DNA from: a virus
Virus genome (UHGV): UHGV-0120097
Strand: one strand, 5' to 3'
Length of the DNA stretch: 37,664 bases
This document shows, in pieces, positions 4,309-36,841 of the stretch. How positions within the stretch are numbered: position 1 is the stretch's first letter; each line of letters opens with the position of its first letter. The notes under the pieces are model-generated. The model searched no databases. It was not told the origin of the DNA and saw only the letters and a program-made list of their open reading frames with translations. Made by a program: the position numbers and the translations under genes.

Positions 4309-5004
4309 ATGATATATGGTTATTGCAGAGTATCTACAAAAAAACAAAATATTTTAAGACAGGTGGAAAATATCATAAAGATATATCAAACTGCTAAAGT
4401 ATTTCAAGAATCATATACAGGAACTACAACAGATAGAAAAGAATGGAGTAAGCTAAAAAAAATAGTTAAACCTGGAGATACAATTATATTTGATTCTGTT
4501 AGTAGAATGAGTAGAAATGCAGAAGAGGGAATAAAAGAATATTTTAATTTTGTAGAAAGAGATATTGAACTTATATTTTTAAAAGAGGGATATATTAACA
4601 CAGCCCTTTATAAAAAAGCTTTAGAGAATAAAATAGATTCAACAGGAAATAAAATAGCTGATATATACATAGATGCAACCAATGAAGTATTAAAGATATT
4701 AGCTCAAGAACAAATTAAAATAGCATTTGACCAAGCTGAAAAGGAAGTATTAGACCTTAGAGAAAGAACAAAAGAGGGACTAAGAGTTACCAAAGCTAAA
4801 GGAACTGTATTAGGTAGAAAACAAGGAGATACTTATACTACCAAGAAAGAAAAGGAGATGAGAGAGAAAATAAAAAAACTAGCTAAAGATTTTGGAGGAA
4901 ATCTTAAAGATATAGAAGTCTTTACACTGCTAGGAATAACTAAGAATACATATTACAAGTATAAGAAAAATATTATACTAGAGGAGGCACAAAATGAGAA
5001 ATAA
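4309..5004 (+). CDS. small serine recombinase (resolvase/invertase family)
   Basis: N-terminal MIYGYCRVSTKKQ (the YxRVSTxxQ catalytic Ser motif), DSVSRMSRN, and a C-terminal HTH-like segment. Confidence 0.75.
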   Translation: MIYGYCRVSTKKQNILRQVENIIKIYQTAKVFQESYTGTTTDRKEWSKLKKIVKPGDTIIFDSVSRMSRNAEEGIKEYFNFVERDIELIFLKEGYINTALYKKALENKIDSTGNKIADIYIDATNEVLKILAQEQIKIAFDQAEKEVLDLRERTKEGLRVTKAKGTVLGRKQGDTYTTKKEKEMREKIKKLAKDFGGNLKDIEVFTLLGITKNTYYKYKKNIILEEAQNEK

Positions 5005-15486: not shown

Positions 15487-16998
15487 TTGAATTTTTTAGG
15501 AAGAGCAGCAAAAAGAAGAGTAACTATTAGTTATAAAAAAGTTATTAAATATCTACACAAAGGACAGAAAGAACTTCTGGACAATGTCTTGGAAAATAAG
15601 AAAAAGTATTTTGCACTAATGGCTCATAGAAGATATGGAAAGGACTTTATTTCACTACTTATTATGATACTAGCAGCTATTCAACACCCAGGAAACTACT
15701 ATATCTATGCACCATACTTTAGACAGGTAAAAGAAATAGTTGTAGATGGAAAAACGTTAAACGGTTTACCTTTACTTGAAAATCTTATACCAGATGAAAT
15801 ACTAGCAAATCCAAGAGGACCTAAAGTTAATAAATCAGATTGGAGCGTAACTTTATTTAATGGAGCTAAAATCTTCTTTCGTGGAGGAGATAACCCAGAC
15901 GCAAGTGTAGGGGTAGGAGCTAGAGGAGTCATTTACACAGAGGCAGCACTTATAAAAGAAAAGTTCTATCAATATATGAAACCTGCAGTTGATATGGTTA
16001 TTAACAATACCGACTTCGGTTTTGTAATATTTATCTCTACACCAAGGGGTAAATATAATTGGTTTACTAAACTATTTATAGATTACTTCACTATCCTAAG
16101 TAAACCAGAAAATAAAGAAATTAAAGATATGTGGTATGTAGATATTCAATCTGGAAAAGATTCCTTGAACTATAAAGGGGAGAGGGTAATAAATGATAAA
16201 GAACTTAGAAAACAAGCTCTTACTATGGACCCAGATTCATACGCTCAAGAGTGGGAATGTAAAATCAATACTCATCTAGTTGGTGCTTGGTATGGAGAAC
16301 AACTAAAAAAAGCTTATGAAGATGAAAGGATAAAGTTTTATGGTAGGTATGAAGAGTTATTAGATAGTGTAAGTAGAAGATATACTCAAATATACACAGG
16401 GCATTTCTGGACACAACAACCTTTATATGTTGCTTGGGATATAGGAAAAAGGGACCATGCAGTATTGTGGTTTTTTCAAAAAAACCCTCACAATAATAGA
16501 ATTAGATTCATAAAACATTATAGAGTTACTGGGCAAGGACCAGACCACTGCTGCCAATATATAAAGAAATGGTGCAAAGATAATGGGTACTATATGCAGC
16601 CTACTATGGTACTACCACATGATGGAGATGTCGAGGAATGGAGTGCAACTTCAAAAAGAAGTGACTACATAAGATTAAATTATTTTAGTGATGTAAGAAC
16701 TCTATCTAAGACAGAGCTAGCTAAAAATGATATGACTACATTAATAAATCAAATCAACTATATAAGAAAGGAGTTTGAAAATGTAGAGATAGATAATAAT
16801 GAGTGTAACATAGGAGTTATACAATTAGGAGGCTATGTCAAAAAATATAACAAGTCCATGAACTGTTACTTAGATATACCAGACCACGACGCAAATGATA
16901 AAGCTTCTGATGACGCAGATTCATTTAGAACTGCTATGATATTTGCTAGCATATATCTAAAAGATAGTTTTGATGGACCACTAACAACTTATTATTAA
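15487..16998 (+). CDS. terL: terminase large subunit
   Basis: ATPase P-loop-like [12 protein letters not shown]; C-terminal RNaseH-like nuclease motifs [21 protein letters not shown] and DDADSF. TTG start after aaggaggtggag. Confidence 0.8.
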
Positions 16999-17018
16999 GA
17001 AAAGAGGTGTTTAAGCAA

Positions 17019-18386
17019 ATGTTAAATTTTAAAAAAGAGTATTTTAAGTTAGAAGAGAATAGACAACAGTATGCTACTAGCTTTTCAGACTTAATGACAA
17101 GTTGTGAAGTTTACGGAAAAAAACAAAATCCTATAACTAGCACAGCTTTTATATTCCTTATACCTAAAGATTATTACACATACAATGCTGGAAACATTGA
17201 TTTTACTAACTACCCAGATGGTATATGGAATGATTACACAGATATTAAGATAGTTAAGTCTGAACCTTATTTTGATTTAGATTTTACTTTTAGTAGTACA
17301 GGAGATATTACACCAGAAAATCTAAATAATATGTTTACTAAAATAAAAGCTGCAATACTTGGAACAGAAAAAGAAATTATAAAATCTCAATTATTTGTAG
17401 ATAGTGGAATACCCAAACAATTAGGTTTACCAGATTTACCAAAAGGTTCTATCTGGTATATGTCAGATGATGGGATAGCTACTTATCCTGTAACTACACT
17501 ATTTGAGAAATATCAAGAGTTGCTCAATAAGATTTATGAAGATACAAAAAAAATATTACTTGAAGATTTGGATAATAGAGTAAAAGAGCTAGTTATTCAA
17601 TTAGAAAAAGATTTAAAAGAAATTATTGATAATTATCTTAAAACAGATAGTTATTTAAAATTAGATAAATATACACAAGAAAAAATAGAAGAAGCAGAAA
17701 AAGAAATCCAAGATTATATAGACTATCATATGCAAGATTTAAAAGGAGAAAGAGGATACTCAATAGCAAGTGTTGGTTTTAATAAAGAATTACCAGAAGG
17801 AAACATCTATACAGTCTACCGTGAAGACGGAGAAATTATAGGAGAATTATTAGCACGAAGAGGTCCTCAAGGTATTCAAGGCAATGATGGACCAGAAGGA
17901 CCGAAAGGAGAGAGAGGAGAAAGAGGATTCAAAGGAGATAAAGGAGACCAAGGAGAAAGAGGGGAAAATGGACCTCAAGGTATTCAAGGAGAGCAAGGAA
18001 TACAAGGAGAAGTTGGACCTCAAGGTCCTCAAGGAATAACAGGTCCTCAAGGTATTCAAGGAATACAAGGGGAACAAGGCATTCAAGGAGAAAGAGGACT
18101 TCAAGGACTAAAAGGCGAACAAGGCATTCAAGGAATACAAGGAGAACAAGGACCTAAGGGAGAGCAGGGAGATATCGGACCTCAAGGTCCTCAAGGAATA
18201 CAAGGTCCTAAAGGAGATAAGGGAGATAAAGGAGATAATGGAACTGCTGTAATCACTCCTATAAATAGTCAGTACATATTCCAAATAGAAGATGGAAACT
18301 TAGTTGTATATTATAACGAGAATGATACTCAACCAAATTTTTCAATAGATGAAGATGGAAATTTAGTATTAGAAATTTTAGAATAA
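17019..18386 (+). CDS. collagen-like repeat tail fibre protein
   Basis: About 50 uninterrupted Gly-X-Y triplets ([13 protein letters not shown]...) between an N-terminal domain and a C-terminal beta-rich domain. ATG at 17019 after aaagaggtg. Confidence 0.65.
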
Positions 18387-18399
18387 GGAGGTTTTAATT

Positions 18400-19512
18400 A
18401 TGCCGAAATTAATTATAGGTAATGTTGTAGGTCCTCAAGGTCCTAAAGGAGAACAAGGAGATATCGGACCTCAAGGTCCTAAAGGAGAACAAGGAATACA
18501 AGGGGAACAAGGTATTCAAGGTTTACCTGGTGCAAAAGGAGAACAAGGAATACAAGGTCCTCAAGGTCCTAAGGGAGATACTGGAGAGCAAGGTATTCAA
18601 GGTCCTAAAGGAGATAAGGGAGATACTGGACCACAAGGTCCTCGAGGTCCTCAAGGTATTCAAGGACCTAAGGGAGATAAAGGGGAACAAGGTATAACTG
18701 GAAATACTGGTCCTAAAGGTCCTAAAGGAGATACTGGAGAGCAGGGTATTCAAGGTCCTAAAGGAGCTGATGGAGTAGGAGTAAAAAGTATAACATTTAA
18801 GAATACTAATGAAGATGGCGGAAATGTTTATACTGTGACTTTAACTAATGGTAGCACATATGATTTTACTGCCCCTAGAGGTCAACAAGGGATACCAGGA
18901 CAAAGCGGTCAACCTGGGACTACCGATTATGAAAAATTAATAAACAAACCAGATGTATATACTAAAACTGAAACTAATAATTTATTAGATGGTAAATTAG
19001 GTAAAGAAGATAAAGCAAAGAGTGCTACAACTGCTGATAGTGCTGGTGCTTGTACAGGGAACTCTGCTACTGCTACAAAATTACAAACTGCTAGAACTAT
19101 CAACGGAGTTAGTTATGATGGTAGTGCCAATATTACAATAGCTGATAATACAAAACTTCCAAAATCCGGTGGTACTATTAATGGAAACTTAACAGTAACA
19201 GGAGCTATTGTTTCAAACGGAGAAGTTACGGCTTATTCAGATAGAAGATTAAAAACTGATATAACAAAGATAACTAATGCTCTTAAAAAAGTAAATCAAA
19301 TCAATGGGTACACATTCACTATGTTAGGTACAGGACAAAGACAAGCTGGAGTTATAGCTCAAGAGATTGAAAAAGTATTGCCAGAAGTTGTGGTCAAAAA
19401 TGAGGACAATGGTTATTTAACTGTTATGTATGGACATATAGTAGCTTTACTTATTGAAGCTGTAAAAGAAATGAGTAAGGAAATAGAAGATTTAAAAGGG
19501 GGTAGGGTATAA
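18400..19512 (+). CDS. collagen-like tail fibre with C-terminal intramolecular chaperone (peptidase S74) domain
   Basis: GXY repeats; a tail-fibre repeat [25 protein letters not shown]; a C-terminal [11 protein letters not shown]...[20 protein letters not shown]...[20 protein letters not shown] typical of the self-cleaving S74 chaperone. Confidence 0.8.
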
Positions 19513-22388: not shown

Positions 22389-22646
22389 CTATTTTAATTT
22401 TAAATCAACCTTAAAATCAATTAAGTCAAAATAAAATATTTTATCTGTACTGTAATAACTTTCTGTATTTGCTTGGAACTCATCTAATTTTAAAGTAATA
22501 TCTCCAACAATAATTTTATATCCATCTTGTATGTCTATAATATCTAAAACTTCTACATCATTTTTAAAATATGTTATCAACCCATTTGTTATAGTTATAC
22601 TTTGAATATTTTCTCTATTTCCTTTTAATAAATCCTTTAATTTCAT
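22389..22646 (-). CDS. hypothetical protein
   Basis: 85-aa ORF, last gene of the minus-strand operon. Confidence 0.4.
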   Translation of the reverse strand: MKLKDLLKGNRENIQSITITNGLITYFKNDVEVLDIIDIQDGYKIIVGDITLKLDEFQANTESYYSTDKIFYFDLIDFKVDLKLK

Positions 22647-23311
22647 TAGCTCAACCCCTTTATCTTTTCTTTTAGTTCAGCCTTAACAGTTTTCAACTCT
22701 TTCAACTCTTCCTCTAATTTTCTGATTTTCGCCTCTACCTCCGATAGTCTGGATACCAGCTTATCTTTTTCAGATTCCTCTACTATCTCGGCATCTTCTA
22801 TTTCGAGCATGCTCGAAATAGCTTTCCTTATTTCTTTATCTGTTCTTATTCCAGAAGATAAAATATTCTCAAGTATTCTTACATTAACCTTTTTATTCAC
22901 TAAAGCTTTTACTTCTCTGTCTGAAAAATCTGAAATTAAATTGTTGTATTGTGGATAGCTTAAAGATAACTTATATCTCCCTCTAAGTAGTGATACTTGG
23001 TCTTTATTAAATCCTAAAGCTTGGTACCACTCCATATATGAACTTGGATTTTCAGAGTATCTATCAAATAGTTTTCTTGCCTCTTCCAAGTTTTGACCTA
23101 TTTGTAGTGCTAAAGAAGAGATATTTTCTTTTTTAGTGATAATACTTTTCTCAAATATAATTAATTGATTTTTATCATCATCTGAAAAATTTTCCAATTT
23201 GTTATAATCATATTTCAATATATCTTCTATATCATTTTTTTCTGGAATAATTACTTCTGTATTTTCTTTCTTTTTTAAAATTATAGGTTTTCTATTTATT
23301 TTTATTGCCAT
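22646..23311 (-). CDS. putative partition protein (ParB/centromere-binding partner of ParA)
   Basis: Lies immediately downstream of ParA and overlaps it by 10 nt. Charged coiled-coil C-terminus. No clear ParB box seen. Confidence 0.4.
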   Translation of the reverse strand: MAIKINRKPIILKKKENTEVIIPEKNDIEDILKYDYNKLENFSDDDKNQLIIFEKSIITKKENISSLALQIGQNLEEARKLFDRYSENPSSYMEWYQALGFNKDQVSLLRGRYKLSLSYPQYNNLISDFSDREVKALVNKKVNVRILENILSSGIRTDKEIRKAISSMLEIEDAEIVEESEKDKLVSRLSEVEAKIRKLEEELKELKTVKAELKEKIKGLS

Positions 23312-24060
23312 TTATTTAACAACTCCTTTGTAAGAGCTTTAAAATCCTTAGCCCCATTTGATGTAGAACTATATTCTATTATAAAATGTCCTGTCTGTGA
23401 GGCTTTAAATATTTTAAGATTATCTCTTATAGGAGTATCTAATATGTTATCAAAAGAATTTCTGACATCTTCAGTGGCTTCTAATATCTCTTTGTCATTT
23501 TGTAGCCTATTGATATAACCAAAATGAATGAATGGAGTGTTTAAATCCTTTTTAAGAGCTTGTATAAAGTTCTCTAATAATTCAAATCCTCTAAAACTAA
23601 ATAGATGAGCTTCAACAGGAGTGATAACATAATTACTGCACTTTAACACAGCCCTTTCTATTGCTCTCATATCTGGTCTACAATCTATAATTATATAGTC
23701 ATATTCTTGAAGTTGCTCTAGTCCCTTTTTTAAATCTAGGTAAATCATTTCCATATCAACACTGTCTTTTTTATATTCCAAGTCCTTTAAATTAAGACTT
23801 GCAGGTATTAAATCTAATATATGTTTTCCATCTCTTTCAATAGGAATTATATTTCCTTTTAAATCTTTCTCTTTTATAGCTCTAAAGATATTTTTTTCTT
23901 GGTCTGCTTCTATTAAACTTTCAGTTAGATTTTGTTGAAAGTCACAATCAATAAGCAAAACTTTTTTATTATGAACTAGAGATAGTACCCCAGCAACTTC
24001 TCTGGCACCAGTAGTCTTACCAGTGCCACCTTTTTCTGTTATGAATGATATTATTTTCAT
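23302..24060 (-). CDS. parA: ParA/Soj-family partition ATPase
   Basis: Deviant Walker A KGGTGKTT at the N-terminus (MKIISFITEKGGTGKTT). SD ataggggggtaaaATG. Confidence 0.8.
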   Translation of the reverse strand: MKIISFITEKGGTGKTTGAREVAGVLSLVHNKKVLLIDCDFQQNLTESLIEADQEKNIFRAIKEKDLKGNIIPIERDGKHILDLIPASLNLKDLEYKKDSVDMEMIYLDLKKGLEQLQEYDYIIIDCRPDMRAIERAVLKCSNYVITPVEAHLFSFRGFELLENFIQALKKDLNTPFIHFGYINRLQNDKEILEATEDVRNSFDNILDTPIRDNLKIFKASQTGHFIIEYSSTSNGAKDFKALTKELLNKWQ

Positions 24061-24069
24061 TTTACCCCC

Positions 24070-25194
24070 CTATATTAAATCCTTATATTTTTTTATATAC
24101 TCTCTTACTTCCTCTGGTTCATAACCAAAATCCTCTCCAGTAGCTTGATATATTTTCATAGCATTTTGATATTCTTCATTAGTTAGTGGAGTTGTTTTTT
24201 TCTTGACTACTGGCTCTTCAACTTCTTTTATTTTTTCTGCTTCCTTAGTTCTTCTTATAACTATTTTTCTTTTAGGTTTATTGATATTGTCCTCTATGAC
24301 TTTTACTAGGTAATTAAGACTTGTAAATTCTGTTTTAATTAAATCATAAGCAGCTTTCAATCCTTTTTCTAATTGTTCTTGGCTAAATTTATCTAAAAGT
24401 TTTATTATATTATCATCAGTCAAGAAAGGTTTTACAAATCTATTTTTCTCTGCTTTCTCAATAGCTGATAATAGCTCTTCTGAAATCTCTATTTCCTCTT
24501 CCTCTTCTATTGTTTCATCAACCTTGTTATCTTTCCAAGTAAACTCAAACCCACTTATAAATTTACCATCTTTTATTTTTTTTACTTTCAAACCTTCAAA
24601 ATATTGTGGTAACTCTTTCATAATAGGAGGCAATACTCTTTTGTTTATAACTGCTGTATCATAGCTTTCTGGAACTCCTAATTCTCTTCTGAAATCTTCA
24701 AGAGTTATAGTTACTTTTTTTATTTTATTCCACTTTTTCAAAATAGAATACATTAGTTGTGAATATCCAGATTTTAAATTAGAATATTCTATCAAAGCTT
24801 GAATTGTATAAGGAGCTTGTAAATGATTTAGCAAATATTTATAGTCTGGATTTATTCTTATTCTAACTGTTTTCTCTTTCTCATCTACTGAAAAGGTTGG
24901 AAACAAGACCATATTTGTAAATCCTTCATCTTTTCTTATTTGCATAACTTGTAATCTTAAAAGCTTATCACTTAATTCTTTTAAAAAGCTATAAATATTA
25001 TCTCCTTTTTTTCTTGCAGAATAATTTGCAATTTTTGAAATCTCTGAAACTTTAAAAGTTACAACTTCATCTTCCTGTTCCATAATCTTTAAACAAAGAG
25101 CTAAAAAAACTGCTCTTTCTTTTACTGAATAATTTTGTAATTGGAGATTATGGAAATCTTTATGATGTATTAGATTATATTTTTCTTGACTCAT
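24070..25194 (-). CDS. rep: Rep_3-family plasmid replication initiator
   Basis: Segments TIQALIEYSNLKSGYSQLMYSILKKW and ITLEDFRRELGVPESYDTAVINKRVLPPIMKEL match the Rep_3 initiator signature. An iteron array lies immediately upstream. Confidence 0.7.
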   Translation of the reverse strand: MSQEKYNLIHHKDFHNLQLQNYSVKERAVFLALCLKIMEQEDEVVTFKVSEISKIANYSARKKGDNIYSFLKELSDKLLRLQVMQIRKDEGFTNMVLFPTFSVDEKEKTVRIRINPDYKYLLNHLQAPYTIQALIEYSNLKSGYSQLMYSILKKWNKIKKVTITLEDFRRELGVPESYDTAVINKRVLPPIMKELPQYFEGLKVKKIKDGKFISGFEFTWKDNKVDETIEEEEEIEISEELLSAIEKAEKNRFVKPFLTDDNIIKLLDKFSQEQLEKGLKAAYDLIKTEFTSLNYLVKVIEDNINKPKRKIVIRRTKEAEKIKEVEEPVVKKKTTPLTNEEYQNAMKIYQATGEDFGYEPEEVREYIKKYKDLI

Positions 25195-28734: not shown

Positions 28735-29391
28735 ATGGAAAAAAAGACAGGAGAAACTTTAAAAAATATTAGAAAAAAATATAACATTACAGGAGAAAAG
28801 ATGGCAGAAATTTTAGGGTGTAGCACTCAATTTATTTATGCAATAGAAAAAAATAAAAATAAATTTCCTGTAAAAAAATTAGAATTGATAAAAAATATTG
28901 TATCTGAAATCGATTATTTCGATTTAATAGAAGCAATAAAATTTGATACTGAACCTGCAAGCCTTAAAAACGAAGTTTTAAAAATCCAAAGTATAGAAGA
29001 GATAAAACAAAAGAAGATACCTTTTTATCCAGATATTGAAGCTTCAGCAGGGTATGGAAGATTTAATGATAGTGAAATTGTAGAGTTCTTAGAAGTTCCA
29101 GAAGATTTAGCAAGACCAGGAAATATAGCTATAAGAGTTGCTGGAGATTCTATGGAACCAGAGATTAAAGACGGAGATACTATTGTAATAGATACAAATT
29201 GTATAGAATGTATTTTAAATAAAATAATAGTTGTTAATTATCAAGGGGCAGTATATTTAAAAAAATATGTTGAAGAAAATGGAAAAATATTTTTAAAAAG
29301 TATAAATCCATATTACCCTAAAATTAGAATAGGAAACAGAGAAGAACTTAGAGTTATTGGGAAGTTAAAAAGTGTTATGAGGTATTATTAG
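28735..29391 (+). CDS. CI-like repressor (XRE HTH + S24 LexA-like peptidase domain)
   Basis: N-terminal LKNIRKKYNITGEKMAEILGCSTQFIYAIE HTH. C-terminal AGDSMEP (Ser nucleophile) with a downstream Lys. Transcribed divergently from the early operon. Confidence 0.85.
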   Translation: MEKKTGETLKNIRKKYNITGEKMAEILGCSTQFIYAIEKNKNKFPVKKLELIKNIVSEIDYFDLIEAIKFDTEPASLKNEVLKIQSIEEIKQKKIPFYPDIEASAGYGRFNDSEIVEFLEVPEDLARPGNIAIRVAGDSMEPEIKDGDTIVIDTNCIECILNKIIVVNYQGAVYLKKYVEENGKIFLKSINPYYPKIRIGNREELRVIGKLKSVMRYY

Positions 29392-30844: not shown

Positions 30845-31933
30845 ATTGTAGATACCGCAAGTATAAATTATTCAGTTAGACAAACTGACTTTGATTTTAT
30901 AATCGGGTCAGCTAATCTATTACTGAAAGAAGAGGCACAAGCAGAAAATAAAAGAATATTATATAAAAATATCCAGCTAAAAAAATTTAGCTGGTTAAAC
31001 TTTATAGGAGTAGAGGAGAAAAGAAACTCTATAACTATAACAATATCTTTTAGTTATTCCAGATATGATAACAATGACAATTACAAGCTAGCAAAAAATA
31101 AAAAAGTTATTGCTCAAGTACATCAAGAATTAATCTTAATACTTAGAAGCATAACAGGGGAACTTGTAAGAGAAGAGGATATAGTTATAACAAGTCTAGA
31201 CCTCTCAAACCAATTAGAAGTTGAGAACATTAGAAATTATTATCAAGTTTTAAATTTGATATACAGAGCCTATAAAAATATCTTTCCAACCTCAAGAATG
31301 TATTTTGATACAGACAACAAAAAAAGATTGGAACTTGACGGAGTAGACTTTAGAGAAAAAGGTAAAAGACCAAGAGATAGCAAGGCTTACTTTAAAATCT
31401 ATTCCAAAAGAAAAGAGATGGAAGATACGGGAAAAGAGGGAGTAAAGAAAAGACAAGCATTAAGAGGAGAGTTGACACTAAGACCTCCGCACCTCAAGAC
31501 CTACAACTTAAATCATCTGGGTGGAATAACTAAAGATAATCTAGCTGCAGCACTTAGAAAAACAATAGGAGCAATACTTACAGAGCAGATAGTCAAAGAG
31601 TTAAACTATGACATCACGGAATTAAAAAAGATAGTTGCTCCAGGAACTAAGGGGCTAGCAGAAAGACTTATGATGAAAGAGTATTTAATATTTGATATTA
31701 GATTACTTGATGTTGTAATGACTGAAAATAATATGAGTATTAAAAAAAGAGCTATTCAATACCAGAAAAAGAAAGTTATTGAAAAGCTGGAAGAGCTAGA
31801 AAAACTTGGAGAGATTAAAAAGTCTTATTCCAAGAACTTTGAAAGATTGGAAAAACTACTCAAAAAAATAGCTAAAGTTAGTATAAAAATAAGACTAGGA
31901 GAAGAGGGGGCAGAGTTAGAATGGCAGGAATAA
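30845..31933 (+). CDS. hypothetical protein (about 363 aa) with no canonical start codon; probable ATT initiation
   Basis: Frame 2 is open for 137 codons upstream of the first TTG (31256), starting right after the strong SD aaaagggggtggg at 30828-30840. The only triplet at the correct spacing is ATT at 30845. The 3' end overlaps TerS. Confidence 0.45.
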   Translation: MVDTASINYSVRQTDFDFIIGSANLLLKEEAQAENKRILYKNIQLKKFSWLNFIGVEEKRNSITITISFSYSRYDNNDNYKLAKNKKVIAQVHQELILILRSITGELVREEDIVITSLDLSNQLEVENIRNYYQVLNLIYRAYKNIFPTSRMYFDTDNKKRLELDGVDFREKGKRPRDSKAYFKIYSKRKEMEDTGKEGVKKRQALRGELTLRPPHLKTYNLNHLGGITKDNLAAALRKTIGAILTEQIVKELNYDITELKKIVAPGTKGLAERLMMKEYLIFDIRLLDVVMTENNMSIKKRAIQYQKKKVIEKLEELEKLGEIKKSYSKNFERLEKLLKKIAKVSIKIRLGEEGAELEWQE

Positions 31934-32409
31934 CCAAAGAGCAGGAAGAGAAGTTCATATCATCATTTCTAGTTTGTAAAAATGGAATGAAAGCCATGCA
32001 AGCTGCTGGAATCCCATTCGACCTAAAGCTAATGCACAAGCTAATGAGTAGTAAGAAAATCAACAAGCAAATAGAGGAACACTTAGAAATGGTGGACTTT
32101 ATGCTAGGTAGAGATAAAATGGGACACTTAGCAATAATGCAAGGGCTATTTGAACAGGCAGCAGGACTAGAAGATACAAAGATTATAAGACTTACAGACA
32201 AAGGACTACTAGAAAAAACAGGTAAATTTGTAGATTTTAAAGCAGCAGTTCAACTGTCGCAAAGAATAGAAACTCTGGCAGGCTGGGACAAGCAAGGTGG
32301 AACTAATAACATTGAGGTTTCATTAGAGCTGGGAGAAAAGACAGAGGACAAGCAAGAGCAAAGAGATGACAAGACTAAGAAATTCTTACAAGTTGAGGGG
32401 GTTGTGTAA
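31921..32409 (+). CDS. terS: terminase small subunit (Terminase_2-like)
   Basis: ITKEQEEKFISSFLVCKNGMKAMQAAGIP matches the TerS N-terminal HTH pattern (T.kQe.F...yl...N...A...AGY). Acidic C-terminus with ...AGWDKQ. Sits upstream of the head genes. Confidence 0.55.
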   Translation: MAGITKEQEEKFISSFLVCKNGMKAMQAAGIPFDLKLMHKLMSSKKINKQIEEHLEMVDFMLGRDKMGHLAIMQGLFEQAAGLEDTKIIRLTDKGLLEKTGKFVDFKAAVQLSQRIETLAGWDKQGGTNNIEVSLELGEKTEDKQEQRDDKTKKFLQVEGVV

Positions 32410-32889
32410 ATGCTTGAGGGAGTATCAAGAGAAGATAAAGCTTTTCTAGTGCTAAAAGAAATACTAGAAGAGGAGCAACAAGCAAACATTGAAAAGTATA
32501 AGTTTTTCACAGGTTCATTAGATGACCTAAATATAAAAGGGCTAGATGAACTGATGATGTTATCTATCAATGATGGACACATAGTAGGTTATATGGGCTG
32601 TATCTATAACATACCACATGACAAAATAATATCGCTAGACTTTATTTTTCTAGGAGATAACCTCACAGAGAGAAAAGAGTTCTTAGATGATTTCGCTAAA
32701 TTTTGTAGTATGCTTGATAAACTCTATAAAAAAATAGAATTAAATATAGTTCCAGAAAGTCCAGCATATAAACTGGCTATGAAGTTTTTTAAAAGATATA
32801 ACTTTAGAAAAGTTGGGACTTTTAGAAAAGCAAGAAAAATCCTTGATAAATTCTATGATGTAGAAGCATGGGAAAAGGAGGAGAGATAA
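32410..32889 (+). CDS. GNAT-like acetyltransferase-fold protein (tentative)
   Basis: C-terminal ELNIVPESPAYKLAMKFFKRYNFRKVG resembles GNAT motif B. It occupies the slot where TerL would normally sit. Confidence 0.3.
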   Translation: MLEGVSREDKAFLVLKEILEEEQQANIEKYKFFTGSLDDLNIKGLDELMMLSINDGHIVGYMGCIYNIPHDKIISLDFIFLGDNLTERKEFLDDFAKFCSMLDKLYKKIELNIVPESPAYKLAMKFFKRYNFRKVGTFRKARKILDKFYDVEAWEKEER

Positions 32890-32890
32890 T

Positions 32891-33166
32891 ATAAAATTTA
32901 AACCAAATATCCAATTGTTTGGTGGTGGTGGAAATGTATTAGGAGGACTTGTTGATACCATTACTTTAGGAGCTACTGACTTTAGTGGTACTAAAAAGCA
33001 ACAAAAAAGAATGGAAGAGGAACTCAAAAAGCAAAGAGAGGCAGAGGCTAAAAAGCAGCAAGCAGAAAAAGACAAGCAAAAGAATACTGCGATACAATTC
33101 CAAGAGAGCATAAGACAAGGTAATTTAGGACTACTAAAGAAAAGTAGTACCCAGACAATAGGATAA
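32891..33166 (+). CDS. small head protein with an N-terminal NIQLFGG Prp-cleavage-like motif; non-canonical start (ATA?)
   Basis: Frame 2 reads IKFKPNIQLFGGGGNVLGG.... The first canonical start (TTG 32915) is the Leu inside the conserved motif. SD aaggagga lies 9 nt before ATA 32891. Confidence 0.4.
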   Translation: MKFKPNIQLFGGGGNVLGGLVDTITLGATDFSGTKKQQKRMEEELKKQREAEAKKQQAEKDKQKNTAIQFQESIRQGNLGLLKKSSTQTIG

Positions 33167-33175
33167 GGAGATACT

Positions 33176-33766
33176 ATGGAAGATAGAATTAAAAATCTAT
33201 TTCGTAGTAGATTCCAGGAGGCACAACAGGAAAGAAATGTAATACTAGCTTGGTATTTGAAAGCTAGAGCACATTTTCTACCAAGAGAAATTAATTTAAA
33301 TGGTGTAGACAGTACAGGACTAGCATATGCTACTAAGTTAGCTAACAAGTTATCAGCTATGATACTTAATAGTAATCATATCTGGGCTTGGATAGAAACA
33401 CCAAGGTTTGAAGATATATCAAGAGATGACAAGATTATCTTTAGACGCATAACAGAAATAGTATTTGATGAGATTCAAGAAAATTCTAACTTTGAAACAG
33501 AGAAAGCTGTAATTCTTATGGACTACCTAATAGGAACGGCAGTTTTTAAAGTTAGATTTACTGGTAAAATTGCAAATCCCGTGGAATTTCAACCAGTACC
33601 CAATATAAATGTTTATCTTACTAAAAGAAGAGGTAAAGAACCTGGAGATGTATTCTACAATGCAGGCAAAGTGAGAAAACATCAGATTCTTAATCTTTTT
33701 GGAGAAAAGGCTTATAACTCTGAAAAAGTTCAAAGAATGTCGCAAGATGACGAGATAGAGTTGTGA
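33176..33766 (+). CDS. portal protein, N-terminal part (ends at an in-frame TGA)
   Basis: Strong SD. The position (TerS ... portal-scaffold-MCP) and the combined size (about 502 codons) fit a portal. A TGA at 33764-33766 interrupts the frame. Confidence 0.5.
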   Translation: MEDRIKNLFRSRFQEAQQERNVILAWYLKARAHFLPREINLNGVDSTGLAYATKLANKLSAMILNSNHIWAWIETPRFEDISRDDKIIFRRITEIVFDEIQENSNFETEKAVILMDYLIGTAVFKVRFTGKIANPVEFQPVPNINVYLTKRRGKEPGDVFYNAGKVRKHQILNLFGEKAYNSEKVQRMSQDDEIEL

Positions 33767-33796
33767 GAGGGGACAATATACGACCAAGAAACTAAA

Positions 33797-34684
33797 ATGT
33801 TTCATTATGTAGTTTCTACTTCGAATGAGTTCACAGACGTTTTAGATCACAGGATAGACACTTACAATCCGTGGATAGTTGCAAGATATGAAAGTATTGG
33901 AGATAGTCCATATGGTATAGGACCTTGTGTTAAAGCGATAATGGAGATTGAGGGGCTAAAAGAAGTTAAAGCTAACATCAGACGTATTGCTAAGAAACAG
34001 GCTAGACCAAGCTATTTAGGTTATGGGCAAGCTAAATATATTCAGAACTCAAGAATAGATGAGCCAGGAGCTATATCTTTAATGGGACAATCACCAGGGC
34101 AAAATCAGATAATACCATTCAACAGGGGAGAGAATGCTAACATGGAGTTCTTTAACCTGGATATGTACAAGGAACTTTTAAGAGATATATTCTATATCAA
34201 CCTAATTGAGAGTGTTCAGAACATAGACCAATTAAAGAATGTTACTGCAACAACAACTCAAGCAATAGTAACAGAGTTCTCAAGACAAATAGAGCCAACA
34301 TATGCACTAATGCAAAGGGAACTATTAAGAGAGATAGTTATAAAAGTTTTTCAATGCTTACAAAAGATTAGCATTATAGATATATCTAAAATTAAAGCTT
34401 TACAGGAAAACCCAAGATTAAAGATAAGATTCTACAATGCCTTGACTATTGCTCAAGACCAAGACGACCTCGAAAGAAATATGTTGTATTTCCAAAATAT
34501 AGCAAGCACTCTGGGACCTCAAGTTGCAGCAGCTAATATGAACCAAGCAGAATACATAAACGCTCAACAAAAAAGGTTTAGAATCAATAACAAAGAATGG
34601 AAATCTGGAGAGGAAACAGAAAAGCAAGTTGAGGAAATGAACGCTATGATAGCTGCACAACAAGGGGGAATGATAGAGCAATGA
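33797..34684 (+). CDS. portal protein, C-terminal part (same frame as 33176..33766)
   Basis: Frame 2 is continuous from 33767 through 34684. There is no SD before ATG 33797. Confidence 0.5.
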   Translation: MFHYVVSTSNEFTDVLDHRIDTYNPWIVARYESIGDSPYGIGPCVKAIMEIEGLKEVKANIRRIAKKQARPSYLGYGQAKYIQNSRIDEPGAISLMGQSPGQNQIIPFNRGENANMEFFNLDMYKELLRDIFYINLIESVQNIDQLKNVTATTTQAIVTEFSRQIEPTYALMQRELLREIVIKVFQCLQKISIIDISKIKALQENPRLKIRFYNALTIAQDQDDLERNMLYFQNIASTLGPQVAAANMNQAEYINAQQKRFRINNKEWKSGEETEKQVEEMNAMIAAQQGGMIEQ

Positions 34685-34902
34685 CAGAAGATGTAAAAGA
34701 ATTTGAAACCCTAAAGAGAAGATATAGAGATGATAGAGCTTTAAAAAGATTGTTTGAGTTATATCTAATACTTGAGCATAACAAAGTATCTATCATGAAT
34801 GAAAAAGGAGTTGATACAACAGGTAAAGTAAAGGAGATAACAGGAGCAAACAGTTTATATATTGAGATATTTACAAAGGAGGCAAAAGAAGAAAATGACT
34901 GA
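34681..34902 (+). CDS. hypothetical small head-module protein
   Basis: 73 aa with an ATGA overlap with the portal stop. Confidence 0.45.
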   Translation: MTEDVKEFETLKRRYRDDRALKRLFELYLILEHNKVSIMNEKGVDTTGKVKEITGANSLYIEIFTKEAKEEND

Positions 34903-35557
34903 TAAAGAAAGATTTAAATTTAATATCCAATTATTTGGAGGAGCAGAGGGAGGAGATACAGGAGGAGAACCTACACCAAATTCAGAGCCAACAATAAATA
35001 CAGGAGCTGGAGGAGAACCACCACAACCAAGTGGAGATAATAGAGCAGGGGCAGAACCTAAATTAGAGCCATTAACTTGGGAAGGAATAAAGGCAGAAGA
35101 TTACCAAGAGATTGGAGATATAGCACCATATATCGCAGAGGCTCAAGAAAAAGGTTACACTCCAGAGTACATTAAATCAAGACTAGATGATAGAAAAGCT
35201 TATCTAGCAGAACAAAAAGCAGCTTTCACTCCAGAACTTAATGCAAGTATGGAAGCAATAAATAACTTCATAGGAGCAGAGAAAGACACAGATAGACAGA
35301 TAGTATATAGAGCTATGGCAGAAAATGCAATAGGAGCTCAAATCCTAAAGGAATACATGGAAATGAAAGCAGGAAGTACAGGAAGTGTAGTAGGAGTTGG
35401 AAAAACACAGCTTTCAACAGATTATACACATGATGGATTCATTGAGGCTTATAATCAATCTTTAGATACAAATGATAAAGGTTTAATGAATAAATTAAAA
35501 GAATATGCACAAGCTAAAAAGCAAGATGACCCATTTTATTGGGATTTTATAAAATAA
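34895..35557 (+). CDS. scaffolding protein with an N-terminal Prp-type cleavage motif
   Basis: MTDKERFKFNIQLFGGAEGG..., a low-complexity Gly/Pro/Glu linker and an alpha-helical remainder. It sits immediately upstream of the capsid gene. ATG at 34895 after aaggagg. Confidence 0.5.
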   Translation: MTDKERFKFNIQLFGGAEGGDTGGEPTPNSEPTINTGAGGEPPQPSGDNRAGAEPKLEPLTWEGIKAEDYQEIGDIAPYIAEAQEKGYTPEYIKSRLDDRKAYLAEQKAAFTPELNASMEAINNFIGAEKDTDRQIVYRAMAENAIGAQILKEYMEMKAGSTGSVVGVGKTQLSTDYTHDGFIEAYNQSLDTNDKGLMNKLKEYAQAKKQDDPFYWDFIK

Positions 35558-35575
35558 GATTTTAAGGAGGAATAC

Positions 35576-36841
35576 TTGAGAAATGAAAAAACTTTATTAG
35601 GAAGCACAGGATTAAATATCCAGCTATTTGCTGGAGCTGGAGGATATGAATACGGAAACGTAAACCTTTCAGCAGGAGAACAGGCTAAATATGTAAATAG
35701 TGTAAAAAGAGCCTTAAATACAACAAACAAAATGCCACTTGAGGGTTGGTTTGAAAAATCAGCTTCAACAAAAGAGGCTTATTCTTTATTCTATGTATCT
35801 GGAAGATTAGAAGCTAGAGATATAGATGACACACAAGCTATGTCTGGACCTAATTATACACCAGGAGAGGTTAAAGGGCAAGATACAGGAACTTTCTTAC
35901 AAAGTATTAGAGTATATCCAACAGGAATGGAATGTCCTGTATATGTTAAGAGAAGAGATTTCGACCGTTCTCAACTAGATGAAAAATCGGTAATAATAGA
36001 TGCACAAATAGCTGCAACTCGTGGAAAATGTGCTAAAAGAATAGCTGAACTTTTCAAAGATTGTATAACAAATAAGAAAAGAACAGTTTATGACAATAAC
36101 AACAAAACATTTGATTTAACTATTCCAGAAAGTCAATTTTACGGAGATGAAACAAAAGAGTTTGATACTCCAGAAAATATAAAACTATTCAGACAAATGA
36201 TGTTACAAGCTCAAGAAGCAGCAGAAGCTCAAGGATTGAGAATAGCTATAGTGTCTGGTGTAGAAGGGAATACAGAGCTTGCAAATGCTGAAAGATTCTC
36301 AAGTAAAGATTTTGGAGAGGGAGAAACAAGAAAAACAGGAAAACCATTATCTATGTTGATGGGTGGACATGTAGAAAGCTTATTCCAATTTGACAAAACT
36401 TTATATCCAACAGGTAGTGAAGGAGTAGGATATTTTGTAGTTATGGTTGAAAGAAGTTTTGGACAAGATAACAAAGATGTATCAGTAACACCAGAAGCTA
36501 ACTATATAGCTGATAAAAAATCATACTTATTAGATGTTGAAGTGTATAACTCAACAGAATTATTAAATCCAGAGGGAGTATTCTTTTTCAAGTATAAGAG
36601 AACAACAGGAGCAGCTGCAGCCTCAGTAGAACCAGTATCTGCTATGGCTATGAATACAATGTCGTTAGCAAATAATGAACAACTAGAGCAGGAAAAAGAG
36701 ATTGAAAAAATGAGAATGGAGAGAGTAGAAAAAGAGTTAGAACTAGAAAGATTAAGAGCAGCTAACAAACAAGCAGCAGTTACTGAAACACAAGAAGCAC
36801 CAGCAACAACTACTACAAAAGCAGCTAAAAAATCAGAATAG
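35576..36841 (+). CDS. major capsid protein with an N-terminal Prp-type cleavage motif
   Basis: TTG start after taaggagg. N-terminus LLGSTGLNIQLFAGAGG. 421 aa, followed by a strong terminator. Confidence 0.55.
   Translation: MRNEKTLLGSTGLNIQLFAGAGGYEYGNVNLSAGEQAKYVNSVKRALNTTNKMPLEGWFEKSASTKEAYSLFYVSGRLEARDIDDTQAMSGPNYTPGEVKGQDTGTFLQSIRVYPTGMECPVYVKRRDFDRSQLDEKSVIIDAQIAATRGKCAKRIAELFKDCITNKKRTVYDNNNKTFDLTIPESQFYGDETKEFDTPENIKLFRQMMLQAQEAAEAQGLRIAIVSGVEGNTELANAERFSSKDFGEGETRKTGKPLSMLMGGHVESLFQFDKTLYPTGSEGVGYFVVMVERSFGQDNKDVSVTPEANYIADKKSYLLDVEVYNSTELLNPEGVFFFKYKRTTGAAAASVEPVSAMAMNTMSLANNEQLEQEKEIEKMRMERVEKELELERLRAANKQAAVTETQEAPATTTTKAAKKSE

Follow-up and report, generated by a model that had tools for sequence, protein, structure and literature searches.

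The virus genome UHGV-0120097, a stretch of 37,664 nucleotides (nt) that was analysed as a whole and is called the window below, raises the question why three genes close to its portal gene, encoding the major capsid protein, a protein in the scaffold position and a small basic protein, should carry nearly the same short peptide, and why this peptide should be the one in which the N-terminal extension of ribosomal protein L27 ends in Fusobacterium. Our data indicate that the three leaders are mimics of L27 which are most probably cut after their Phe by the host protease Prp, and that the window is a Fusobacterium phage-plasmid; we assign this reading a probability of roughly 0.78. Within it we infer the cleavage itself, a tolerance of Gly at P1', the Fusobacterium host and a role of the leader before its removal. 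The genes and their leaders are listed here, and an apostrophe inside a sequence marks a known or predicted cut.

32891-33166, + strand: gene of the small basic protein, directly upstream of the portal gene; 91 amino acids (aa) if ATA 32891 is the start
32891-32920, + strand: small-protein leader (I/M)KFKPNIQLF; predicted cut between 32920 and 32921, leaving GGGGNVLGGLVD...
34895-35557, + strand: scaffold-position protein, 220 aa, isoelectric point (pI) 4.6, between the portal and capsid genes
34895-34936, + strand: scaffold leader MTDKERFKFNIQLF; predicted cut after its F, leaving GGAEGGDTGG...
35576-36841, + strand: major capsid protein, 421 aa, HK97 fold by predicted structure, TTG start
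35576-35629, + strand: capsid leader (M)RNEKTLLGSTGLNIQLF; predicted cut after F18, leaving AGAGGYEYGNVNLSAGEQAKY...

The degenerate pattern N-I-Q-L-F-(G/A) has three exact matches in the whole window, all on the + strand (at 32906, 34922 and 35615), and none in 100 dinucleotide-preserving shuffles. A looser six-frame protein scan of the window found no further NIQLF-like copy, and none of the tail proteins has the motif. All three sites sit in the first 10-18 codons of head-module genes near the portal, in the contexts IKFKPNIQLF'GGGGN for the small gene, MTDKERFKFNIQLF'GGAEGG for the scaffold and (M)RNEKTLLGSTGLNIQLF'AGAGG for the capsid. Positions P5-P1 read NIQLF at every site; the residue that follows at P1' is Ala in the capsid, and the other two proteins have Gly there. 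The predicted leaders of the scaffold (14 residues) and the capsid (18 residues) stand at the extreme N-terminus in a good start context, with a GGAGG Shine-Dalgarno sequence preceding both ATG 34895 and TTG 35576; that of the small protein has about 10 residues, and this only if the gene starts at ATA. Therefore the near-identical N-terminal peptide which the first-pass annotation of this DNA had described on the scaffold and the capsid is borne out. For the small protein, to which the same annotation had extended the claim, the motif is indeed encoded, and the peptide is N-terminal only if translation begins at ATA 32891; its description as a head protein agrees with the adjoining portal gene and is an assignment from position only. 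The further remark that the peptide is conserved even at the nucleotide level holds to a modest degree: the 17-nt motif cores differ from each other at 1-3 positions, and the leader DNA of the small gene and the scaffold is about 75% identical over 44 nt (a hand count from the alignment), roughly what the same amino acids in an AT-rich genome give.

The long type of L27 has the consensus MLxx(D/N)LQ(F/L)F'A(S/H)KK, and the L27 of Fusobacterium nucleatum, MQFLFNIQLF'AHKK, is the only one with NIQLF in Table 2 of PMC9405229. We surveyed the best 120 proteins matching a Fusobacterium-type L27 query, the first 14 residues of which came from that table. Among these 120, the proteins of Fusobacterium begin M(Q/K)F(L/I)(F/L)NIQLF'AHKK, and (L/F)NIQLF'A(H/K)KK is found in the closest matches (mostly metagenome proteins), in F. 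necrophorum and in several metagenome-assembled genomes (MAGs) of Fusobacteriaceae. Named Leptotrichiaceae (Leptotrichia, Pseudoleptotrichia, Sneathia, Caviibacter, Oceanivirga) have LNLQ(L/I)F'ASKK, and Psychrilyobacter and strain ZRK30 have RIE(I/L)QLF'. An N-terminally extended L27 in Fusobacterium, as had been proposed, is thus confirmed as (L/F)NIQLF'AHKK by the published table, by the database proteins and by F. necrophorum. In the latter the operon order is L21, Peptidase_Prp (PF04327), L27; the L27 starts MKFILNIQLFAHKK, and the Prp has GHA and VCAA stretches at the expected places of its His and Cys, so that the protease too is present in the genus of the inferred host. When the leaders are aligned with Fusobacterium L27, NIQLF is identical in all of them; the capsid match covers seven consecutive residues and runs through the P1' Ala (LNIQLF'A), and the scaffold and the small protein have NIQLF plus a Phe at P8 in common with L27.

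In the pathway that we propose, the host cysteine protease Prp, whose normal task in ribosome assembly is to cut pre-L27 between F and A, would be presented with three portal-region proteins made with leaders ending (F/L/P)NIQLF, the same end as that of the host L27 extension. Prp would recognise the leader at P5-P1 (Asn, Ile, Gln, Leu, Phe) and cut after the Phe. The mature proteins would start AGAGGYEY... (capsid), GGAEGG... (scaffold) and GGGGNVLGG... (small protein), and the semi-specific N-terminal peptides predicted for them are AGAGGYEYGNVNLSAGEQAK and GGGGNVLGGLVDTITLGATDFSGTK. The phage would need no protease of its own, since the host Prp would do the cutting. In the complex of the Staphylococcus aureus Prp, recognition depends mainly on the binding of P1-P3, with contributions from P5 Asn and P3 Gln, and Prps are species-specific (PMC9261936). 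The positions read by the S. aureus enzyme are those conserved here, and we read the motif as a Prp site. The staphylococcal phage 80alpha, which the first-pass annotation had rightly named as a precedent, has L27-like leaders on its scaffold (gp46) and capsid (gp47) that are cut by the host Prp (PMC5744158, PMC9405229).

The conservation of the capsid gene can be followed among relatives of the window, which we name by lineage number (L001 and so on) where they have to be told apart. The AlphaFold model of the 421-aa protein, built from 17 relatives, has a predicted local distance difference test score of 74 and a predicted template modelling score of 0.68. Residues 1-27, which include the leader, are disordered in it, and the first helix (N-arm) covers residues 33-48. 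A Foldseek search of the model against the PDB gave phage capsids first (LME-1, T5, DT57C and others) and also encapsulins, with E values down to 1.8e-10; judged by this model, the protein is an HK97-fold capsid. There is no sequence-family match in Pfam, PHROGs or the phage database. Capsid relatives down to 36% identity retain (L/F)NIQLF(A/G), with F18 invariant and Q16 at least 90% conserved, whereas the flanking leader and linker vary in sequence and length. Because LNIQLF persists while its flanks vary, the region is conserved in the way expected of a cleavage site. At P1' some relatives have Gly and others Ala. The lineage L001 has the same unusual variant, NIQIF'A, on its scaffold (4553) and its capsid (5301), which fits with both being tuned to one protease.

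The other end of the capsid protein is a C-terminal extension (residues 346-421, nt 36611-36841) with a predicted long helix at 366-404 and a tail rich in Ala, Thr and Lys. Relatives with a 344-aa capsid are without it, and in L011 (4834-6009, P0033) an almost identical extension stands on a leaderless capsid core that is only 30% identical, which points to capsid cores being exchanged as modules.

The scaffold-position protein is assigned from synteny and from its acidic pI of 4.6. No homologs were found in Pfam, PHROGs or the PDB sequences, where the profile gave noise only. After the leader it has a Gly/Pro-rich linker, followed by a conserved C-terminal region. An exhaustive search collected 16 representatives of the family (P0167-P0182), and about half of them have leaders of the type NIQLF'A/G or NIQIF'A. 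The rest have aligned, degenerate leaders (ERILF'D, NICF'D, NLHL'D, KVLF'D, QIFF'D, KIYY'D), which may be decayed Prp sites or may function without cleavage.

Several of our observations speak against cleavage by Prp in a Fusobacterium host. The scaffold and the small protein have Gly at P1', a position occupied by Ala in all Prp substrates known so far. Roughly one half of the scaffold family, as just described, has leaders ending (F/L/Y)'D without the Asn or the Gln. L011 has a swapped, leaderless capsid gene and keeps the leaders on the scaffold and the small protein; L010 and L023 carry the motif only on the capsid, their scaffold and small protein being leaderless; and the small protein of L009 is without the motif. 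In the window clade the small protein has its leader only if translation starts at the non-canonical ATA. The two characterised F. nucleatum prophages Funu1 and Funu2 are without the motif on any real open reading frame (ORF), and therefore the feature belongs to this phage family and not to Fusobacterium phages generally. As to the host, a capsid relative with 47% identity, the sole match in the genome collection, lies on a 6.6-kb MAG contig binned as Faecalimonas, and the best ParA and resolvase matches are not from Fusobacteria and come from mixed taxa.

It could be argued that the leader serves the head proteins chiefly as a tag for assembly, folding or targeting, for example as a capsid-targeting sequence or as a handle recruiting Prp as a chaperone, that its cleavage is incidental or absent and that the likeness to L27 counts for binding alone. 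Such a tag could be present or absent protein by protein, as it is among the relatives, and the degenerate scaffold leaders ERILF'D, KVLF'D, QIFF'D and KIYY'D do keep their position and their hydrophobic, basic character. Additionally, 80alpha cannot assemble without its scaffold leader but does not require this leader to be cut, and the cleavage of the capsid is dispensable as well (PMC5744158). However, conservation here falls on P5 Asn, P3 Gln, P1 Phe and a small P1' residue, which are what Prp reads and are identical to the L27 site, and a tag that is only bound need not preserve the context of the scissile bond. The leaderless capsid of L011 and the leaderless small protein of L023 also start near the predicted mature N-terminus, which suggests that the mature form is functional. 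Thus it is not likely that the leader is chiefly a tag, and we prefer to see it as a Prp substrate. As relatives do without the leader on individual proteins, its cleavage cannot be essential for each protein. Removal of the leader is probably helpful rather than essential, as far as the comparison of genes can tell, and the leader gives the impression of a movable module that is of use without being indispensable. The statement of the first-pass annotation that capsid maturation depends on Prp therefore goes beyond the evidence, given the relatives with leaderless proteins and the dispensable cleavage in 80alpha.

For the small gene, the start codon has to be considered together with the following features.

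32410-32889, + strand: GNAT-like gene, 159 aa; its stop abuts the start of the small gene; weak PF13420 (Acetyltransf_4) match in relatives
32874-32893, + strand: Shine-Dalgarno sequence AAAGGAGGAGAG (32874-32885), then the candidate non-canonical start ATA (32891-32893), 1 nt past the upstream TAA stop

There is no ATG, GTG or TTG between the in-frame stop TAG at 32861-63 and the motif, and the sole canonical start of the gene is the TTG that codes for the L of NIQLF. This TTG (32915) was rejected as the start: it has no Shine-Dalgarno sequence within 30 nt, and the codons upstream of it are conserved as protein with synonymous changes. A frameshift fusion of the small gene to the GNAT-like gene was rejected also, since inspection found no slippery heptamer or prfB-like site and L023 has a plain ATG at the codon homologous to the ATA. 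The ATA at 32891 is located 9 nt past GGAGG and would give a leader of 10 residues, the same length as the L27 leader. An ATA stands at the equivalent place in seven lineages including that of the window (the others being L008, L014, L015, L016, L009 and L010). In the leaderless small genes, the ATA GGA AG(C/T) of L009 and L010 corresponds to the ATG GGA AGT of L023. The in-frame sequence upstream of the small gene reads ATG ATG TAG in the window clade and in L015. Relatives with an in-frame upstream ATG encode MMWNGGKRRRDSIKFKPNIQLF'GGGG, MWNGGKRRRDNIKFNLNIQLF'GGGG, MGEGGERIKIKLNIQLF'GGGG and MVGKGGERTIKFKLNIQMF'GGGG, and since these ATG-started genes include the leader, it is translated in those lineages. 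L015, with 72% protein identity, has the same ATG ATG TAG and ATA as the window, yet retains INFKINIQLF'GGGG, and when the window is compared with L008 or L015 all changes inside the motif are synonymous. Across the relatives the beginnings of the leader differ (KFKP, KFNL, KIKL) ahead of a nearly invariant NIQLF'GGGG, with NIQMF in L014. Because of these sequences of the relatives, ATA 32891 is the likely start. The best reading is that the small gene is translated from AUA, perhaps by termination-reinitiation, and the GNAT-like gene gives a setting for such translational coupling. The predicted mature form of the small protein has 81 aa and a pI of about 9.7; its family matches are weak ones only (phrog_26964, function unknown). 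In all relatives the GNAT-like gene keeps its place, with the small terminase-like gene on one side and the small gene with the leader on the other; that its product acetylates the N-termini of head proteins is a guess only.

If the leaders are removed, one has to ask whether the phage might bring its own protease. The space in which a prohead protease could be expected contains, besides the scaffold gene, a single further gene.

34681-34902, + strand: 73-aa ORF, the only gene between portal and scaffold; no Pfam or PHROG match; conserved in relatives

Its translation is without cysteine, and therefore it cannot supply a His-Cys dyad of the Prp type. The first-pass annotation was thus correct in seeing no prohead protease gene in the space from portal to capsid. 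T7-type podoviruses are normally without a head protease, and for this reason the missing gene is not evidence in itself. Neither a head protease nor a Prp homolog was found in the window by Pfam on 30 ORFs, by PHROGs on 20 ORFs and in the precomputed Pfam hits of the relatives, and no PF04327-like gene (clan CR, of the Cp-1 type) was found in any scanned ORF. The only peptidase-type matches in these scans were the S24 repressor, among the relatives' precomputed hits, and the S74 fibre chaperone. A tblastn search of the window with the F. necrophorum Prp gave nothing significant (best E value 4.3). Many ORFs of the window have no family assignment, so a phage protease could have escaped recognition and could cut the three leaders, the match to L27 being convergent or irrelevant. 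On this view the agreement of 6-7 residues with the L27 cleavage site in the inferred host would go unexplained, and, as no protease-like match was found, the 73-aa ORF has no cysteine and phages of this type normally have no head protease, we consider it very improbable compared with cleavage by the Prp of the host.

The host of the window is most likely Fusobacterium or a close relative in the Fusobacteriaceae, because of the identity with the L27 leader, the Rep3 matches, the type of lysozyme and the GC content. The best matches of the Rep3 protein are plasmids of Cetobacterium somerae, Fusobacterium varium and a Fusobacteria strain (35-41% identity); the lysozyme is a single-domain enzyme of the P22/T4 type, best matched in phages of Gram-negative hosts; and the GC content is about 30% (range 26-37%). 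The suggestion of the first-pass annotation that the motif points to a Prp-containing host such as Fusobacterium is supported by the same evidence. ParA, resolvase and lysozyme were each rejected as a basis for the host call: the first two match mixed taxa, and the lysozyme shows only an endolysin of the Gram-negative type. It could be that Prp does cut the leaders but that the host is another Prp-bearing bacterium, for example a member of the Clostridia or Lachnospiraceae with the same L27 leader. The 47%-identical capsid on the contig binned as Faecalimonas sp. would agree with this, as would the best resolvase matches, which are Clostridium plasmids, and our L27 survey covered the 120 proteins closest to a Fusobacterium-type query. 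However, the contig has only 6.6 kb and comes from a MAG, where mis-binning is easy, and its motif is NIQIF, as against the NLQFF given for L27 of the Lachnospiraceae type, for instance in Ruminococcus torques and Eubacterium rectale (PMC9405229, Table 2). The Rep similarity, the single-domain lysozyme and the exact NIQLF favour the Fusobacteriaceae, and a different host is unlikely in our estimate, though it is the alternative that we take most seriously. The co-variation of NIQIF in L001 may mirror an identical variant in the L27 of its host; the Faecalimonas bin is doubtful.

A different role for the same leaders would be that of decoys, which soak up Prp late in infection and slow the maturation of new ribosomes as a form of host shut-off. 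S. aureus cannot do without Prp and the correct processing of L27 (PMC9261936, PMC9405229), the capsid and the scaffold protein are abundantly made, and the Prp of F. animalis is under positive selection at residues lining its substrate pocket, for which no cause was named (PMC12341114). Against this stands that the idea is purely speculative, that existing ribosomes would be unaffected, that a temperate phage-plasmid gains little late in infection and that the loss of leaders in relatives speaks against a strong selective role. We regard the decoy as the least probable of the alternatives, with hardly any weight beside the processing of the head proteins by Prp.

The head genes described so far belong to an element whose end and start run into each other in a relative (99.75% over 801 nt); the window therefore covers a complete circle of 37,664 base pairs. 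Its portal gene is the following.

33176-34684, + strand: T7-type portal gene (PF12236, Head-tail_con), with an in-frame TGA at 33764-33766

The two halves of the portal match the PF12236 profile at positions 4-198 and 249-475. At the site of the TGA the relatives have TGG (Trp, in ELWEGTIY), and their portal is intact at 503 aa in all. The TGA probably arose by nonsense mutation or by an error in sequencing; if it is a real mutation, this copy would be defective unless the codon is read through. An alternative genetic code (4 or 25) was rejected, since TGA ends several genes naturally, no other long ORF would merge and the relatives have TGG. The tail genes match the PHROG tail-protein families phrog_394 and phrog_376 and are taken to be T7-type tail-tube genes; three large proteins after them have no family match. 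The further gene content includes a large terminase, collagen-like fibres, a lysozyme, a holin, Rep3, ParA, a resolvase and an S24 repressor. No integrase was found in the window, and we regard the whole as a temperate podovirus that persists as a plasmid. Metagenomes contain many nearly identical copies of it, about 37 kb long. No close relatives were found among the INPHARED GenBank phages or in PLSDB: the phages gave no match to the capsid, and the plasmids no nucleotide match to the head region. The portal and the terminase reach only about 25% identity to their best INPHARED/PLSDB matches, and the portal matched only a Legionella plasmid (23%).

Some further features of the element may be added. 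The regions of Rep3, ParA, the resolvase and the S24 repressor are 22389-25194, 4309-5004 and 28735-29391, and a Phage_gp49_66 gene spans the junction 37664/1. Two adjacent fibre genes (17007-19512) have collagen triple-helix repeats, with an S74 intramolecular chaperone domain at the end of the second. The large terminase (15487-16998) lies between the gene of a 1633-aa putative internal protein and the fibre genes, a T7-like late position, about 16 kb from the small terminase-like gene (31921-32409) beside the head module. The window contains no tRNA genes.

The comparison with known systems places the leaders closest to those of 80alpha. In both phages the short leaders of scaffold and capsid copy the host L27, with lengths of 13-14 aa in 80alpha and of 14 and 18 aa in the window; a small residue follows their final (N)(L/I)Q(F/L/H)F, the capsid has the HK97 fold and a prohead protease is missing. 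Contrastingly, 80alpha is a siphovirus in which the cutting by Prp has been demonstrated, and the window is a T7-type podovirus-plasmid of an unrelated lineage, for which such cutting is predicted; its inferred host belongs to another phylum, the diderm Fusobacteriota, its motif is NIQLF and not NLQFF, a third protein bears the leader and two of the sites have Gly at P1'. That such leaders are a portable module was seen from the capsid of phage 80 and the major tail protein of phi13, which have the motif on non-homologous proteins (PMC5744158). Likewise the leaders are found here on three unrelated proteins and are gained or lost among the relatives, and unlike in phi13, where a tail protein is concerned, all carriers lie in the head module. 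With the pre-L27 (bL27) of Fusobacterium, the substrate of Prp (MEROPS C108), the leaders agree at P6-P1, for the capsid through P1' (LNIQLF'A), and by the Phe at P8 in the scaffold and the small protein, the latter with a leader that also has 10 aa if ATA is the start; past the cut they differ, having Gly/Ala-rich linkers in place of AHKK, and the proteins are otherwise unrelated to L27. The capsid-targeting sequences of T4 are removed at a different motif by the phage-encoded prohead protease gp21. As in T4, several head proteins here have a common short N-terminal peptide, the removal of which during head maturation is predicted; unlike in T4, the motif belongs to a ribosomal protein of the host and no phage protease was detected. 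Phage Cp-1 encodes its own Prp-like protease (clan CR), which processes the N-terminus of the capsid (PMC9261936, PMC9405229), and in contrast to Cp-1 the window has no detectable Prp-like protein. In the literature searched we found no paper linking Fusobacterium phages with Prp.

We would tentatively go one step further and suggest, as a possibility that is less likely than the processing by Prp itself, that the L27 mimic is a portable Prp-cleavage tag which arose independently outside the Firmicutes and is shuffled among the capsid, scaffold and small protein in uncultured Fusobacterium phage-plasmids. Such a tag would track the host L27 and so serve as a barcode for host prediction, it could drive the selection on the Prp pocket in Fusobacterium, and the small gene would possibly be AUA-started by coupling, which would keep its copy number low.

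If the cleavage is confirmed, this would be the first phage outside the staphylococcal phages and the Firmicutes that hands the processing of its head proteins to Prp, and an independent acquisition would mark Prp as a recurrent target of phages. For uncultured phages of Prp-bearing bacteria, a comparison of virion N-terminal leaders with L27 leaders would be a cheap way of predicting the host, given that NIQLF separates the Fusobacteriaceae from the named Leptotrichiaceae with their NLQLF. Natural substrates with Gly at P1', if true, would extend the known specificity of Prp. Fusobacterium is medically relevant and Prp is pursued as an antibiotic target (PMC9261936, PMC9405229). The use of Prp by phages would offer a testable cause for the positive selection on the Prp of F. 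animalis (PMC12341114).

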